Below, in pieces: positions 7,742 to 46,782 of a DNA stretch of 64,000 nt; within the stretch, counting starts at the first letter, position 1, and each line of letters begins with the position of its first letter. Under the pieces are notes generated by a model that saw only the letters and a list, made by a program, of their open reading frames with translations, was not told the DNA's origin and searched no databases. Both the position numbers and the translations under genes were made by a program. This stretch comes from a virus. The stretch lies in IMG/VR virus record IMGVR_UViG_3300030108_004854, positions 9,065 to 73,064 of that record; one strand, given 5' to 3'.

Positions 7742-9574
7742 ATGAAATTCCAACTGCCTGACCAGATTCAGATGGAGGTCATGAGCTATGACCAGACACG
7801 TAAGCGTCTAGCCAAACAACAACGTGACGAAGAAGCAAGGCGTGGCAATATCAATAGAACCAAAGCTGCTAAATATCCCAAAGGTAATGTCATCTCACTA
7901 GGTCTAATCCCTGATGACATTGTTAGTACCAGAGAAATGCAAGAAGCCATTGACTTTATCAATGGCACCACAATAAAGAATACAATCAGTCGATTTAGTT
8001 ACATGGAAGATCCACCAGCTGGACAAACTCGTTTGCATGCTGTGTTGTATTGGACAAAACAATATTGGGTCGCAGCATGGATGCCTAAGCGCAAAGATGA
8101 TGGCTACTTGTATGGCATATCAGTTGCATTTAAAGATACAGAAACAGCAAGGAAACAAATGCAGACTAATGAAAGATTATTTGTTAATCGTAAAAGCGGA
8201 AGTAAATCATTGATAGATGATCCTGACTTGCAAATGAGTAAGCGTAAGATTGGTCGAACCAACTGGCTAGTTACAACACAGTTCATTACCCAAGAAGAGA
8301 TTGAAGCTGGCTATACAACGAATTACATACGTGAAGTTGATATGAATCACACAATAGAAAGATACAAAGAGCGTACACAACTACATTCAGAAGCAATCAT
8401 GGAGCTATGGCGTAACATCATGGCTGGTGTACCTCAATGGGATCACATTAGGTACAACAATAATGATTTTATACGGATGACAAAGCTAGGTAACAGTATT
8501 AAATATGTTGTTAATGATTGTCATATTCCATGTATGACACATGAAACCATGTGTAAATTTGAACATACTAATGAGTTCTATCACAAAGTATTCAGTGAAT
8601 ATGGAGAATATGACTGCATTGCACCAGAGTTCTTTAACTCACCGTGGTTCCGTAGAAAAGTTAACAAAATGGTTAGTGATATGTCAGTGGCATTTGAGAT
8701 GGCTGATCCAATCAAAGCATCGATGAAACCTATCGTTGCACCATTATCCGATATGCATCATTACTTACAAGGAGTTAATGAAATGTATAAAGCTTATCCG
8801 TTCTGTGACATTAACCATTTAATTGCTAACGAACACCTACTTGAACGTGTTAAGTTTCATATGCCTACTTTAAATATCAGCGAATACGCGCATCGATATC
8901 TAACAGAAAATGTGCCGCCAGAACGGTTTATTAATATGCTGAAGCAACATCATGATTATTTGATTGCAGAAAGAGCCAAACAAAATCAAGATTCATATAA
9001 TCATCACTACGATGAAGACGACATTAGTGGTAACCCACGGATGTATTGGAGACATTGGGCTGACTCAATGAATATGCTTAATCAAGTGTTAAGACACAAT
9101 GAAAGAACACCAGAAAATATATTACCTACTGAACCAAAACGTTATCGCATTAATGAATGGCATGACTTACTAATGAGTCAGACCTGGAAGCTTCGTAACC
9201 CTAATGAAAAACTTCCACAGAAACTATTCCCTCAACCAGTCAAAGCTGAAAGTGACATGGGCACTTTCACATTCTTCCAGCCCATTGACACGCATCAGGT
9301 GGCTGAGTGGGGACAGGCTATGCGGAACTGCGTTGGTAGTGGTAGCTATGCAGAAGGTGTCAGAAAATTCAGGCACATTATTCTGCTAGCGATGGTTGAT
9401 AACAAGCCACGATTTACCATGCAACTTACGGTTGATAACGGAGAGATCAATATTGATCAATGCACAACGCTACGCAATGGTGGTCAGGATTACAAACTGA
9501 CAGCAGATGAAAACACTTGTCTCAAGACAGCGTTCGCTAAAGCGTTGCAGTTCAGAGAGATTCAGCTACGCTGA
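7742..9574 (+). CDS. PcfJ-like domain protein
   Basis: C-terminal WHDLL...VAEWGQAMRNCVGSGSY...RFTMQL pattern typical of PcfJ domains. Confidence 0.75.
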   Translation: MKFQLPDQIQMEVMSYDQTRKRLAKQQRDEEARRGNINRTKAAKYPKGNVISLGLIPDDIVSTREMQEAIDFINGTTIKNTISRFSYMEDPPAGQTRLHAVLYWTKQYWVAAWMPKRKDDGYLYGISVAFKDTETARKQMQTNERLFVNRKSGSKSLIDDPDLQMSKRKIGRTNWLVTTQFITQEEIEAGYTTNYIREVDMNHTIERYKERTQLHSEAIMELWRNIMAGVPQWDHIRYNNNDFIRMTKLGNSIKYVVNDCHIPCMTHETMCKFEHTNEFYHKVFSEYGEYDCIAPEFFNSPWFRRKVNKMVSDMSVAFEMADPIKASMKPIVAPLSDMHHYLQGVNEMYKAYPFCDINHLIANEHLLERVKFHMPTLNISEYAHRYLTENVPPERFINMLKQHHDYLIAERAKQNQDSYNHHYDEDDISGNPRMYWRHWADSMNMLNQVLRHNERTPENILPTEPKRYRINEWHDLLMSQTWKLRNPNEKLPQKLFPQPVKAESDMGTFTFFQPIDTHQVAEWGQAMRNCVGSGSYAEGVRKFRHIILLAMVDNKPRFTMQLTVDNGEINIDQCTTLRNGGQDYKLTADENTCLKTAFAKALQFREIQLR

Positions 9575-9633: not shown

Positions 9634-9721
9634 GGGAGTGTGGCGGAATTGGTAGACGCATCGGACTTAAAATCCGTGGACTGTTATGGTCATGCGAGTT
9701 CAAGTCTCGCCACTCCTACCA
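9634..9721 (+). tRNA. trnL: tRNA-Leu(UAA), CCA encoded
   Basis: Acceptor GGGAGTG/CACTCCT, D-arm GCGGAATTGGTAGACGC, anticodon loop CT-TAA-AA, long variable arm, T-arm GCGAG-TTCAAGT-CTCGC. Confidence 0.95.
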
Positions 9722-33442: not shown

Positions 33443-34102
33443 ATGGCTAACCCAAATTCCAAGTCTTGGTTGACACAACAGAGAATAAAAGAAAGAAAAA
33501 ATTTTCGTCTCTTAGATTGGTCAAAAGATTTAAAAGATCAAGGTTTTTATAGAGGATTACCTTGCCCTTACGAGCATACGATTAGAGACAGCACTCACCA
33601 CTGGTGTTATCAATGCGTGTTAAAAATACAAACTGGTTTATGCGGCTTAGATATCAATTATGTACATGAAGATTTTTCTCATTATGCAGTCAAAGCATTA
33701 GAAATGATTGATGTTGGCAATCCTAAAGAATGCTGGCCTGTAACAGCTTTAGATCGACACGGAAAACCAAAACGTTTTGCATTTCCTGACTACAAACAAA
33801 ATGCAAAAGAAATTGCGCCAAACAAATTGACTTTAAAAAAAATCATGTACACTTTATTTTGGGGAGATACAGGCAAAGAAGTTGTGACTAATCTACCTGG
33901 CTGTACTAATCCAACTTGTTGTAATCCACTTCATCTCACCACAATTTATAATCGTGATGCAACACCACGGAAGATGTTTAATTATTTAGATTTAAACCGA
34001 GATGATCGAAAGATAAACTTATTATTAAATAGACATTTAAAAAACTATCGCATTGAAGATTTACTTAAACAAGAATATAGGCCTACGATTTCAGCAATTT
34101 AG
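33443..34102 (+). CDS. zinc-binding hypothetical protein, HNH-like remnant
   Basis: CPYEH..WCYQC; ECWP; CTNPTCCNPLHL. Confidence 0.7.
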   Translation: MANPNSKSWLTQQRIKERKNFRLLDWSKDLKDQGFYRGLPCPYEHTIRDSTHHWCYQCVLKIQTGLCGLDINYVHEDFSHYAVKALEMIDVGNPKECWPVTALDRHGKPKRFAFPDYKQNAKEIAPNKLTLKKIMYTLFWGDTGKEVVTNLPGCTNPTCCNPLHLTTIYNRDATPRKMFNYLDLNRDDRKINLLLNRHLKNYRIEDLLKQEYRPTISAI

Positions 34103-34126
34103 AATAGAAGATAAAGCATGGGTTAG

Positions 34127-35047
34127 ATGGCGGTATCGCAGAGACAACGTTCTCAACACAATCCATTAAATCTAGGTACTTTTACTCGGACTTCTTTGCG
34201 TCTGTTGATTGGAGATCTTGGCGCTAAAAATCAAATTATATCAGGTGGTTATGGAGAATATACATACAATCATTGGTTTCAAATTACTATAGATAAACCA
34301 GCTTGGCTTATTGTTATTAAGTCTGGAAGTAAGTTAGGAACAGAAAATATTAACCCCATTAATAATAGATACGATCAAACAAGTGTACGTTTTACTACTT
34401 CTATTTATAGCCAAAATCAAACACCTATACAAGGTCGTTTAATTAACGATAGATCAACTGGATATTGGGATCAAGTGGCTGGTGCTCAATCCGATTTATA
34501 CAATACATTTAATGCTTCGTTTGCCAGTAAGAACAATGAAATGTTCTATCCATTGGCACCAGGTAATTATCTTCTTTGTGTTTCAGCTATACGTAATGAA
34601 TATTTAACCTATGGTGTGGGACTTGTTATTGAATTCCCATCAGACGATACTCAATTCATATTAAATGAAGATCCATCAACTTCATTTATGTTGCAAGAAG
34701 CTTCAACTGCAACTGATATTGGAACTTTATATCAACAAATACCTCAGCTAATTACGTCAGACGTAACACTAGATACTATTAATGGTTTTACAGAAAATAT
34801 AACACAAATCCAAAATGGTGTAGCTGTACAAGTCAATAATCAAAATCCAGAATTACAAGCTTTAACTTGGTATATCGGACCGTTATTTCCTAATATTAAT
34901 GATCAAGATAACAGAATTTTATTAGATGCTACAGAAAATTGGGTATTAACAACATTTGATCATGATTTAGGATTATGGCAAGAAGCTTGGGCTAGAGAAA
35001 ATATAGGTGCTTTTCCTGCATTTTTCATACCTTACGCAGTAGAATAA
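34127..35047 (+). CDS. hypothetical protein, possible virion component
   Basis: 306 aa, beta-rich; TAGAAT upstream. Confidence 0.75.
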   Translation: MAVSQRQRSQHNPLNLGTFTRTSLRLLIGDLGAKNQIISGGYGEYTYNHWFQITIDKPAWLIVIKSGSKLGTENINPINNRYDQTSVRFTTSIYSQNQTPIQGRLINDRSTGYWDQVAGAQSDLYNTFNASFASKNNEMFYPLAPGNYLLCVSAIRNEYLTYGVGLVIEFPSDDTQFILNEDPSTSFMLQEASTATDIGTLYQQIPQLITSDVTLDTINGFTENITQIQNGVAVQVNNQNPELQALTWYIGPLFPNINDQDNRILLDATENWVLTTFDHDLGLWQEAWARENIGAFPAFFIPYAVE

Positions 35048-35066
35048 TTGCAAAACGTGTATTCTC

Positions 35067-35222
35067 GTGTTTAATTTAGTTCCTGATATTATCAGTGAGT
35101 ATTGGAAACAACAATATCAAGCAGAAGAAAAAATAAAAAAAACAAATAAACCTGCCGATGAATTTAAAAAATTTTGTGATGATGAGCCATGGGCACCTGA
35201 ATGTAAAATCTTTGATGTTTAG
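35067..35222 (+). CDS. cp12: minimal CP12-like protein (51 aa)
   Basis: GTG start; C-terminus FKKFCDDEPWAPECKIFDV matches the CP12 C-x8-C tail. Confidence 0.75.
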   Translation: MFNLVPDIISEYWKQQYQAEEKIKKTNKPADEFKKFCDDEPWAPECKIFDV

Positions 35223-35249
35223 AATAGAAATGTAGGGTTTTTATTTATT

Positions 35250-35396
35250 ATGCACGATTTACTTGCGAATCCAATTACTTGGATTATTGTTGCAGCTGCA
35301 TCTGAAATTATTGCCTTATCTCCTCTTAAAGACAATAGTGTTGTTCAATTGATTTTACGTGCTTTAGTTCAATTAAAGCCGTCTGTAAAAAAGTAA
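35250..35396 (+). CDS. small membrane protein, holin-like (48 aa); probable -1 frameshift extension to 35563
   Basis: MHDLLANPITWIIVAAASEIIALSPLKDNSVVQLILRAL...KK; ends GTA AAA AAG TAA. Confidence 0.75.
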   Translation: MHDLLANPITWIIVAAASEIIALSPLKDNSVVQLILRALVQLKPSVKK

Positions 35397-35440
35397 AAGG
35401 GATTACTCCTCCAGACTCTGTGTTTCTTGCGACATGGAGT
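35387..35440 (+). promoter_or_regulatory. candidate -1 programmed ribosomal frameshift signal
   Basis: In-frame A_AAA_AAG heptamer (35387-35393) before the stop; -1 frame open to 35563; downstream CTCCA...TGGAG stem. Confidence 0.65.
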
Positions 35441-35559
35441 TTGAGAAGTAATCGACAAAGAATTAAAGATGAATTAATGCGTCGTAAAAATGAAGCATTA
35501 ACAGGTTCTCGCATTGATAAAGCTATTAGAGATTATAAAGAAAAAACAGGTTGGAAAGA

Positions 35560-35718
35560 CTAATTATCTAAGGCTTGAAACCAATAACAAAAACCTTGGT
35601 TTTTATCTAACCAATTTTTAAGATTGTAAGCTTCTTCTTTAGACATTGTTTTACATTCACGATGTTTAGCAAGTTCCCAGCAAACATTAACTTGTATATT
35701 ATAATTTTTATTTTTCAT
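35560..35718 (-). CDS. hypothetical protein (52 aa)
   Basis: Manual translation MKNKNYNIQVNVCWELAKHRECKTMSKEEAY... Confidence 0.55.
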   Translation of the reverse strand: MKNKNYNIQVNVCWELAKHRECKTMSKEEAYNLKNWLDKNQGFCYWFQALDN

Positions 35719-35907
35719 TTAATTAATTAATTTATTTACTAATAAAACTATAGAAGCCGCACCCCAAAATCCTAAACCAATAACTGCAAGGATAATCCCT
35801 TCAGACGTTAAAAACTTTCTTGGTGATTTTCCATTTGTTATCTCTATCTTTTTTTCCGTTCCATCCTCCATTGATTCTGTAACAGCATGCATCGAATCCT
35901 TGTCCAA
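35719..35907 (-). CDS. small membrane protein overlapping the endolysin 3' end
   Basis: C-terminal TM IILAVIGLGFWGAASIVLLV; start uncertain. Confidence 0.45.
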   Translation of the reverse strand: MDKDSMHAVTESMEDGTEKKIEITNGKSPRKFLTSEGIILAVIGLGFWGAASIVLLVNKLIN

Positions 35908-36481
35908 GACAGATACCTAAGAGATCATTATCTTTAATCCATGTTAAAGCAGAACGGAAAGGATATTGCTCAGCAACATAGTCACATCCGCGTTCCACAA
36001 TAAGTGGATCATGTAATTCAGCAGCTAGACGAGTGTAATTAAATTTTCCTGTCAGCATTAAAACTCCTGATCCTTTATATTTAGGTCCGTCATTTGGACC
36101 ATTACCCAAATCAGAACGATTATTATACGCAGTCCCATCTGCAATTTCTTTCATCCAACGAAAATTCCCTGTTTCATGCGCAAGATTTGCAATTAACATA
36201 CACATAGCTGGTTTATGTTCTGCAAAACCTGTTATCATTAATAATTTATTAAAATCACCACAAAAAGTTGCATCGAATTTACTAGCAGAATAACCAGTAA
36301 GTTCTTGCATTATCTGAGGCGTGATAATTTCTTCAGTTGGATTTGCAGGGCCAGCGCGATAAAGCTCTGCAAATTCATCCAACTGCTCATCCGTCAATAC
36401 TGATTCAAGCCAATTCCAAGCAGCTAATTGATGTGATTCTTCTTTGTAATATTTAGCTGCTTTACTCAGATTGATCGTCAT
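35801..36481 (-). CDS. GH19 (chitinase-like) endolysin
   Basis: ANLAHETGNF..KE, DLGN..DGPKYKGSG.LMLTGKFNY, RINGGWNG..DR. Confidence 0.9.
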   Translation of the reverse strand: MTINLSKAAKYYKEESHQLAAWNWLESVLTDEQLDEFAELYRAGPANPTEEIITPQIMQELTGYSASKFDATFCGDFNKLLMITGFAEHKPAMCMLIANLAHETGNFRWMKEIADGTAYNNRSDLGNGPNDGPKYKGSGVLMLTGKFNYTRLAAELHDPLIVERGCDYVAEQYPFRSALTWIKDNDLLGICLGQGFDACCYRINGGWNGKKDRDNKWKITKKVFNV

Positions 36482-36635
36482 TTAATACCTCTTTTTTTTC
36501 AGGTGTAAATTCAAGTGTCTCTAGGCATTCGCTAATAAGCTGGCTAGAAAACTGTTGTAGTGTCACATCATTTGTTGTACGTGCTGCTGCATAAGAATTA
36601 ATAGCAGAAATTAATTCTGATTTTGTACAAGACAT
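36462..36635 (-). CDS. hypothetical protein (57 aa)
   Basis: Manual translation MSCTKSELISAINSYAAARTTND... Confidence 0.6.
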   Translation of the reverse strand: MSCTKSELISAINSYAAARTTNDVTLQQFSSQLISECLETLEFTPEKKEVLNDDQSE

Positions 36636-46119: not shown

Positions 46120-46782
46120 CTACTTCCAGTGTTGGTAGATTGTTTGTAATTCGGCAAGAGAAAAATCTAGTAATTCTGTATCTTTTTCATAATTATTAGC
46201 AAAATTAGAAAGGGCATAGGGGCTGATATGTTGTTGAAGTTCTCTGATAGCATCAACTTGCCCTTTAGAAGCTGTATATTCTCTAAAGGCTTTTAGCAAA
46301 ATATCTTTAGACAAAATAGTCATTTCGTCTTGTTCTTTCATAAATAAACGAACTTCATGGCGTCTTCGATCGATTAACCCACCGACTACTTTGTGATCGT
46401 TATCAAAAATCCAACAAGATATTTCTTTAATTGTTTCGCTATAGTCTTCATCATCTAATGTGTCAATAATATTGGAATATAAAAAGGTATCCCAGCCAAC
46501 TGAGTGTGCAAATGATGCTAAAGCACAGACTTGATTTTCATCAAGGCCAAGATTTAATTCTTCAATTTGAGTACCAATAACTTCTATTTCATGTTTTAAA
46601 AATTCTAAAGCCTTTGTTGGTGTTATATACTGTCCTTTTTTAACAGGGCTCCCATCAGGATAAAACTGTGTGCCATAACCAATAGTATAAGGATCACTAC
46701 CTGTATCTGGATCAAAGTATGCTTTTTCGCTAAAACCTTCAAAAGTTTTAATGATTAATAAAGCCTCCGTGTATGGATACAT
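46120..46782 (-). CDS. GH24 phage lysozyme
   Basis: IKTFEGF..KAY.D....YTIGYG, ALASFAHSVG, GLIDRRRHE..LF. Confidence 0.88.
   Translation of the reverse strand: MYPYTEALLIIKTFEGFSEKAYFDPDTGSDPYTIGYGTQFYPDGSPVKKGQYITPTKALEFLKHEIEVIGTQIEELNLGLDENQVCALASFAHSVGWDTFLYSNIIDTLDDEDYSETIKEISCWIFDNDHKVVGGLIDRRRHEVRLFMKEQDEMTILSKDILLKAFREYTASKGQVDAIRELQQHISPYALSNFANNYEKDTELLDFSLAELQTIYQHWK

Follow-up and report, generated by a model that had tools for sequence, protein, structure and literature searches.

The stretch of DNA considered here (hereafter the window) comprises 64,000 nucleotides (nt), positions 9,065 to 73,064 of the virus record IMGVR_UViG_3300030108_004854, a 73-kb IMG/VR entry estimated to be 93 % complete. 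It has a GC content of 0.39 and encodes, amongst others, a DNA polymerase, a primase and a virion structural protein. Within it, a short plus-strand open reading frame (ORF) for a membrane protein of 48 amino acids (aa) terminates on a slippery heptamer, A_AAA_AAG, beyond which the −1 frame remains open as far as a convergent gene, with an endolysin gene close by (Table 1). An original prediction, made from the letters of the sequence alone, had proposed that a programmed −1 ribosomal frameshift at this site yields short and long forms of a holin-like protein, and it is this arrangement, its conservation and its likely purpose that are evaluated herein.

The layout of the locus is as originally described. 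The 48-aa ORF ends GTA AAA AAG TAA, placing the heptamer in the phase xxA AAA AAG, i.e. the canonical X_XXY_YYZ pattern, with 0 codons between it and the stop. The −1 frame is open from position 35339, directly after a TAG at 35336–35338, to a stop at 35561–35563, which provides 56 residues from the slip site (in translation starting VKGITPP and finishing GWKD), and contains no ATG, GTG or TTG between that upstream stop and the heptamer. It reaches the convergent minus-strand ORF, such that the two end together. The heptamer in itself is unexceptional, as AAAAAAG occurs 35 times in the window against an expectation of 33.7 ± 6.5, and is therefore not enriched; with a motif as common as chance predicts, its significance rests on conservation and not on the window alone. 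Two of these 35 sites display the full geometry, for which the heptamer had to terminate, in phase, an open frame of at least 40 codons, the 0-frame stop had to follow no more than 3 codons later, and the −1 frame had to stay open over at least 40 codons. The second of them (46635–46641, minus strand) is no frameshift candidate, as its apparent −1 frame is the own frame of a 220-aa ORF (46120–46782).

A layout of this kind might also arise by artefact or decay, either from a gene of ~104 aa that has been broken by a homopolymer error or a recent mutation, or from a −1 ORF that is open by chance. Homopolymers are error-prone, a few database proteins read through the site in frame, and AAAAAAG stands at chance frequency in a window of this GC content. 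A contig from an independent metagenome run, belonging to another study, matches positions 34600–35695 with 0 differences and 0 gaps, however, so the run of six A residues is no assembly error. What remains of this explanation is addressed by relatives of the gene, and these were reached via protein searches only, since a blastn search of positions 34100–36500 against the phage collection returned zero matches.

At the protein level, a tblastn search with the 48-aa sequence reaches 27 phage records of GenBank, of which 25 bear the name Synechococcus phage or Cyanophage. One locus each was taken from nine GenBank phages. An in-phase A_AAA_AAG, 0 or 1 codon before the stop, is present in the siphoviruses S-CBS1, S-CBS3 and KBS-S-2A, as well as in the Autographiviridae S-B28, 7B11-B and WH11-B. 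At the homologous position (near 1626), S-EIVl (L008) and the further locus L065 harbour G_GGA_AAG, the heptamer of lambda G/GT, followed by −1 ORFs of 88–90 codons; not being a homopolymer, this variant fits tandem transfer RNA (tRNA) slippage. All seven heptamer-bearing isolates possess a −1 ORF of 52–90 codons, and the extension of KBS-S-2A resembles that of the window (tblastn E-value 1e-2; 47 residues aligned at 40 % identity, read in the −1 frame with respect to the upstream gene). The two exceptions amongst the nine phages are MedDCM-OCT-S37-C6, with neither heptamer nor extension, and P60, where a distant 76-aa homologue has its charged tail in frame and no heptamer.

For a broader view, two samples were drawn from IMG/VR, with loci denoted by L numbers. 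The first combines the best 80 of 501 relatives from a family alignment scan with the nine GenBank loci and the window (90 loci), the second contains the best 80 of 106 relatives from a scan seeded with the S-B28 form, and the two, pooled and de-duplicated at the nucleotide level, provide 145 distinct loci. As selection used the N-terminal part alone, the sample is blind to the extension. An in-phase slippery heptamer is found near the end of the ORF in 80 of the 90 loci of the first sample (75 A_AAA_AAG, 3 A_AAA_AAN, 2 G_GGA_AAG and 10 with none) and in 69 of the 80 loci of the second. Overall, 126 of the 145 distinct loci keep the −1 ORF and have the heptamer 0–1 codon ahead of the stop. In the first sample, the 0-frame stop lies 0 or 1 codon past the heptamer in all 80 of the loci that have one, and extensions measure 19–322 codons, with a median of 76.5. 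The upper value stems from a single locus (L041:1644-2609), where the −1 ORF continues without a stop into the endolysin ORF; a frameshift there would yield a transmembrane (TM)-anchored endolysin fusion.

Codon usage at the slip site is equally constrained. Terminal Lys-Lys is encoded by 72 of the 80 distinct first-sample versions, and in 67 of these 72 it is written NNA AAA AAG, whereas codon use in the remainder of these genes predicts 4.8 % (AAA providing 54 % of Lys codons, and A 19 % of four-fold third positions). The codon ahead of AAA AAG is one of nine different codons specifying nine amino acids, each of which ends in A, and a G trails the A run in 97 % of slippery loci. Relatives that end in Lys-Lys and have no conserved extension use AAG AAA or AAG AAG in every case (3 loci in the first sample and 11 in the second, counting L004 and L122, which are the same record), and in two of these the endolysin gene begins right at the stop. 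Judged by these codon choices, the heptamer is selected at the nucleotide level, beyond what the protein needs.

Beyond the slip site, the −1 frame bears the marks of a translated sequence. Amongst the 8 window-clade sequences (28 pairs), the Nei–Gojobori ratio of nonsynonymous to synonymous substitution rates (dN/dS) stands at 0.152 for the extension and 0.141 for the upstream part; the 12 sequences of the S-CBS1/KBS clade (66 pairs) give 0.134 and 0.149, respectively. By this measure, purifying selection on the −1 ORF is as strong as that on the part upstream. Synonymous divergence is considerable (dS > 1), and the heptamer is nonetheless invariant between clade members. Column variability has its third-position peak in the 0-frame before the heptamer and in the −1 frame after it, from the first codon on, in both clades; additionally, the extensions of the window and other clades align with each other. 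Since 126 of 145 distinct loci, seven independently sequenced isolates amongst them, show the same out-of-frame layout, and given the identical independent run, the invariant heptamer and the low dN/dS (0.15) of the −1 ORF, artefact or decay is in practice refuted by the comparative data.

Conserved coding capacity would also be expected if two separate genes were present, with the downstream ORF translated alone from an internal start or by termination–reinitiation. Candidate starts for such a gene are GTG 35420 and ATG 35477 in the window, and the TTG or ATG annotated for S-CBS1 gp23 and S-CBS3 gp22, which GenBank lists as genes separate from gp22 and gp21, respectively; reinitiation might instead employ a near-cognate codon at the 0-frame stop (a conserved CTGA in the S-CBS1 clade, and GTGA in L011 and L013, where the GTG overlaps the TGA stop). 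A GTG at extension codon 9 is found in 5 of the 8 window-clade members, the database protein P0021 begins with a Met at the second residue of the extension, and a stop 0–1 codon from the extension start also suits translational coupling. The starts themselves are, however, not conserved. In 79 of 80 loci, the −1 frame upstream of the slip site is devoid of start codons, and the first one downstream is scattered anywhere from codon 0 to codon 71, with none at all in L012, L032, L088 and L089. Both window codons that the original prediction had singled out as possible independent starts fare poorly in this regard, GTG 35420 having its counterpart in the five clade members already mentioned, and ATG 35477 being unique to the window. 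Moreover, residues ahead of every candidate start are conserved, and the annotated internal starts of S-CBS1 and S-CBS3 trim such residues, whilst variation is synonymous in the −1 frame from the first codon onwards. Reinitiation, for its part, leaves unexplained both the fixed NNA AAA AAG and its loss where the extension is absent. Lastly, natural in-frame fusions of the two parts occur in the protein database (P0002, 125 aa, from a 63-kb contig; P0019, 121 aa, from a 49-kb contig; P0004; and P0011), which shows that the covalently joined protein exists. Independent translation of the extension as a gene of its own is, on this evidence, highly unlikely.

A joined protein could also be made if RNA polymerase, rather than the ribosome, slipped on the A run, with mRNAs containing one extra A (or two fewer) encoding the long form. 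The site is a homopolymeric A run, the product would be of the same kind, and runs of 8–9 A, on which transcriptional slippage is efficient (as in Thermus dnaX and insertion sequence (IS) elements), are present in six loci (L017, L057, L077, L081, L088 and L089). The slip sites of these six, some of which end in C not G, precede extensions of 101–115 codons, and transcriptional slippage could contribute there. The window has only 6 A, however, and most loci 6–7, whilst G_GGA_AAG in S-EIVl and L065 holds but three. The constant X_XXY_YYZ phase and the trailing G are, furthermore, needless for a polymerase, and a hairpin at 7 nt is a ribosomal, not a transcriptional, stimulator. As a general explanation, polymerase slippage is thus very improbable.

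The hairpin in question follows the heptamer of the window and is stronger than the stem originally described, with a minimum free energy of −25.3 kcal/mol (z = −4.06) that 0 of 200 shuffled sequences fold well enough to equal. Each of the 8 window-clade sequences folds into a strong hairpin of its own, starting 7–9 nt past the heptamer (z from −3.1 to −6.3), and their consensus structure contains 21 pairs, 3 of which display compensatory changes, lending modest covariation support to this candidate stimulator.

On comparative grounds, both the conserved recoding signal and the protein-coding nature of the −1 ORF are demonstrated, and the recoding part of the original interpretation is strongly supported by heptamer conservation, a dN/dS of 0.152 and the unconserved starts. 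From this we infer that the A_AAA_AAG site very probably directs programmed −1 ribosomal frameshifting. Escherichia coli dnaX (tau/gamma) and the orfA–orfB genes of the IS3 family undergo −1 frameshifting at A_AAA_AAG, and the resemblance of the cyanophage site to these includes the same heptamer and phase, the predicted tandem tRNA-Lys slippage and, in the window clade, a stem–loop at short spacing, with two expected products that would have a common N-terminal part and a fixed ratio. The differences are that slippage shortens the dnaX protein but would lengthen the cyanophage one, as in IS3; that the S-CBS1 clade is without a hairpin; and that the gene class concerned is a membrane protein of the lysis cassette. 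In lambda G/GT and T7 10A/10B, a conserved phage −1 frameshift likewise leaves a minority of the molecules with an extended C terminus; those, however, are virion-assembly or structural genes, as opposed to a ~48-aa TM protein of a lysis cassette.

With regard to the surroundings of the gene, the proximity of an endolysin holds, its ORF lying 238 nt from the −1 stop and also matching solved endolysins and class IV chitinases; a search of this ORF against Pfam gave no match at an E-value ≤ 0.1. Amongst the 145 loci, 109 have an endolysin homologue within 1.5 kb, which is downstream on the same strand in 93 loci and convergent, as in the window, in 10, and 10 further loci have a small terminase subunit within the same distance. 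In S-CBS1, S-CBS3 and KBS-S-2A, a TM/coiled-coil gene of 81 aa is followed by the frameshift gene and then by the endolysin, whilst in the T7-like S-B28, 7B11-B and WH11-B the frameshift gene is located between the tail fibre and small terminase genes. Of the 145 loci, 108 have the 81-aa gene ahead of the frameshift gene. Its product, of 81–87 aa, comprises an N-terminal TM helix plus a coiled coil (phrog_26178 / phrog_12220) and weakly matches an XhlA-like ‘hemolysin’ PHROG (E-value 5e-4); the window lacks this gene, a homologue search there giving nothing significant. In the database entries P0009 and P0018, the 48-aa part is fused to a protein of the 81-aa type.

Closer to the window gene, the small minus-strand ORF that overlaps the endolysin has no PHROG or significant Pfam match and is a possible second membrane component of the lysis cassette; together with the Cys-containing ORF that ends at the −1 stop, it may supply further lysis components. 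The ORF directly upstream of the frameshift gene encodes a CP12 domain, an auxiliary metabolic gene typical of cyanophages that here neighbours the lysis genes. Elsewhere, an HNH-endonuclease-like ORF (33443–34102, plus strand; phrog_1872, E-value 9.7e-9) is positioned between the replication genes and the CP12/lysis region, and the sole tRNA gene found in the window is a tRNA-Leu (anticodon TAA) at 9634–9721 on the plus strand.

Table 1. Features of the frameshift locus in the window, and the gene preceding it in relatives (coordinates are those of the window unless a locus is named)
Feature	Position	Strand	Remarks
CP12-domain ORF	35067..35222	+	Directly upstream of the frameshift gene; PF02672, E-value 1.1e-5; 41–51 % identity in 7 IMG/VR loci
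0-frame ORF, short isoform, 48 aa	35250..35396	+	Single-pass membrane protein; phrog_22542, E-value 2.6e-22
Slippery heptamer A_AAA_AAG	35387..35393	+	In 0-frame phase
−1 frame extension, 56 codons + stop	35393..35563	+	Joined to the 48 residues would give the 104-aa long isoform
0-frame stop TAA	35394..35396	+	Abuts the heptamer
RNA hairpin, candidate frameshift stimulator	35401..35453	+	Starts 7 nt after the heptamer
52-aa Cys-containing ORF	35560..35718	−	Kept in 8 related loci, 43–65 % identity
Small ORF with C-terminal hydrophobic helix	35719..35907	−	Overlaps the endolysin 3′ end by ~107 nt; kept in L011, L013, L014 and L015
Endolysin, GH19/chitinase-like	35801..36481	−	Convergent with the frameshift gene; phrog_181, E-value 9.7e-24; phrog_14712 (chitinase), E-value 6.5e-12
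81–87-aa neighbour gene in relatives	L001:2228-2473, L002:2220-2465, L007:1263-1508, L009:1206-1469		

The 48-aa protein of the window aligns to 42 of the 49 positions of phrog_22542, and it also matches phrog_15106 (E-value 4.5e-6), both families being of unknown function. Its best 17-residue hydrophobic stretch has a mean Kyte–Doolittle (KD) hydropathy of 1.73, with net charges of −1 and +4 on the N- and C-terminal flanks, respectively. Across the family, the best 17-mer averages 1.8 and encloses an invariant Ser-Glu within the hydrophobic segment, which is succeeded by an amphipathic helix and then a basic end. Mean flank charges are −1.2 (N) and +3.9 (C), with the C flank more positive in 55 of 56 sequences, and the positive-inside rule hence predicts an N-out/C-in topology. 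The ORF has one N-terminal Met (MHDLL...) and no dual-start motif, such that the isoforms would differ at the C terminus.

The extension matches zero Pfam families and, in PHROG, at most weak families of unknown function. An AlphaFold2 model of the natural fusion P0002 (60-row alignment, mean predicted local distance difference test score (pLDDT) of 75) contains a TM helix at residues 10–25, a helix at 32–46, a coil that covers the conserved P-x-D-G-x-W...R-F-S-T-R-S block, and a 32-residue helix at 65–96 (pLDDT ~90). Its tail is Pro-rich and has no secondary structure (block mean pLDDT 60–65), ending in a short conserved motif with a Trp. The window extension is the shortest version, consisting of the helix and terminal Trp without the Pro-rich linker. 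Foldseek comparison of the model with the PDB returned nothing at an E-value ≤ 0.001, and the ESM Atlas yielded only unnamed viral or ‘hypothetical protein’ clusters, with scores < 0.9. A complex prediction for the endolysin plus the extension scored 0.02, weighing neither way.

Overall, the best explanation is that frameshifting produces short and long forms of what is most likely a holin-type lysis protein, a reading to which we assign a probability of roughly 0.8. The part of the original prediction that called the protein holin-like stands in so far as its context (a lysis cassette beside the endolysin, or the position of the T7 holin) and architecture (a small protein with one hydrophobic helix and a charged, basic C-terminal tail) are of the holin type; membership of a holin family does not, as curated families do not include it. 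That the membrane protein participates directly in lysis is reasonably likely. A genuine holin/antiholin pair formed by the two isoforms is a more tentative proposal, somewhat less likely than not, both the membrane topology and any holin/antiholin activity being putative.

Several observations weigh against this reading, in part or in whole. In 15 sequences of the S-CBS1/KBS clade there is no significant conserved hairpin (alifold −2.5 kcal/mol, individual z ~0), and the only conserved features downstream are the 0-frame stop one codon on and the block CTGATCCC; a stimulator is therefore either restricted to certain clades or missing from this one, which leaves frameshift efficiency unpredictable and perhaps unequal from clade to clade. 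Sequencing errors in the homopolymer might account for the few in-frame fusions, and the Met at which P0021 begins is a hint of additional, separate expression of the extension in some lineages. No curated holin family contains the 48-aa protein, which matches 0 Pfam families at an E-value ≤ 0.1. Net charge of the extension is unconserved, ranging from −11 to +6, so that a simple charge-based antiholin model misfits some clades. Finally, the real holin could be the ORF that overlaps the window endolysin or, in relatives, the 81-aa TM/coiled-coil gene.

Such considerations lead to the main functional rival, in which the frameshift is real but the two forms are no holin/antiholin pair. The long form would then be another lysis accessory, anchored in the membrane and either spanin-like or bridging the envelope, or else would tether or regulate the endolysin, with the short form as a by-product or a separate small membrane modulator. 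The N-terminal TM helix, long helix, Pro-rich linker and conserved C-terminal strand-like Trp motif of the long form loosely recall an i-spanin, the stretches examined around the gene in these phages contain no annotated spanin, slippage in L041 would give a TM-anchored endolysin, and the other small membrane ORFs nearby could include the true holin. The predicted N-out/C-in topology would, however, place the extension in the cytoplasm and not the periplasm, L041 is a single case, and no structural match was found. A crude lipobox scan, which may miss atypical signals, likewise identified no convincing outer-membrane lipoprotein partner in the cassettes of the window, KBS-S-2A, S-CBS1, S-B28, L010 or L015. 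A spanin-like or endolysin-tethering long form thus appears unlikely.

Returning to a holin-type protein made in two forms, the nearest functional parallels are lambda S105/S107 and phage 21 S68/S71, where one cistron beside the endolysin specifies two membrane proteins with a shared TM domain, in a ratio set by an RNA-level signal adjacent to an RNA structure. Those pairs differ by 2–3 N-terminal residues through alternative initiation, whereas the cyanophage forms would differ by a C-terminal domain of 56 aa (19 to ~115 aa elsewhere), and no sequence similarity of the cyanophage protein to the lambda and phage 21 holin pairs was found. The T7 holin gene, 17.5, lies between tail fibre and small terminase, which is the position equivalent to that of the gene in S-B28, 7B11-B and WH11-B, and both encode small proteins with one hydrophobic helix; the cyanophage protein, however, has no detectable similarity to any Pfam holin family, and we know of no recoding of T7 17.5. 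The P60 homologue (gp39/phrog_15106) is distantly related to the 48-aa part and adjoins the endolysin region of a T7-like cyanophage, yet is a single 76-aa ORF with a charged helical tail in frame, no heptamer and no −1 ORF. This comparison suggests that a tail can be encoded either directly or by recoding.

Under the holin-type reading, ribosomes translating the 48-aa gene would arrive at A_AAA_AAG with Lys tRNAs in the P and A sites, and the adjacent stop codon, plus the hairpin 7 nt downstream in the window clade, would hold them there. A fraction may then slip one base back and read 56 further codons. The outcome would be two products with the same N-terminal TM and amphipathic helices, one of 48 aa with a basic tail, and one of 104 aa whose added part is predicted to be a soluble, mostly helical domain. 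Frameshift efficiency would fix the ratio of short to long forms and so may tune the timing or execution of lysis. It is conceivable, if speculative, that slip efficiency acts as a clock for lysis throughout a large group of marine cyanophages, balancing a 48-aa hole former against an extended antiholin or a membrane-anchored endolysin/envelope adaptor.

None of the GenBank records annotates a frameshift. Besides the separate genes of S-CBS1 and S-CBS3 described above, the extension is unannotated in KBS-S-2A, S-B28, 7B11-B and WH11-B, and in the S-EIVl record the downstream ORF is a separate gene whilst the 48-aa gene itself is unannotated. Full-text literature searches, whose reach does not include supplementary gene tables, found no description of this lysis-gene frameshift, and the passages searched of the KBS2A announcement and the comparative paper on S-LBS1 mention neither ‘frameshift’ nor ‘holin’. 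For tail chaperones and some capsid proteins of tailed phages, programmed −1 frameshifting is textbook knowledge, as are holin isoform pairs that arise from alternative starts; the mechanism is hence canonical, and it is the gene class and its presumed use that are new.

The arrangement is widespread, occurring in siphoviruses and Autographiviridae, and amongst the samples from 501 and 106 detected IMG/VR relatives, and a frameshift in the lysis cassette corrects the annotation of the isolates. Were the proposed role true, no earlier case of a phage lysis gene under the control of a programmed frameshift would be known, and the arrangement would represent a recoding-based counterpart of the lambda dual-start motif that siphoviruses and T7-like podoviruses infecting Synechococcus and Prochlorococcus have in common. 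The lysis genes of marine cyanophages are poorly known, and this gene is a concrete candidate for lysis timing in cultivable phage–host pairs, which, again if true, would provide a handle on latent-period control in viruses of the ocean's main phototrophs.

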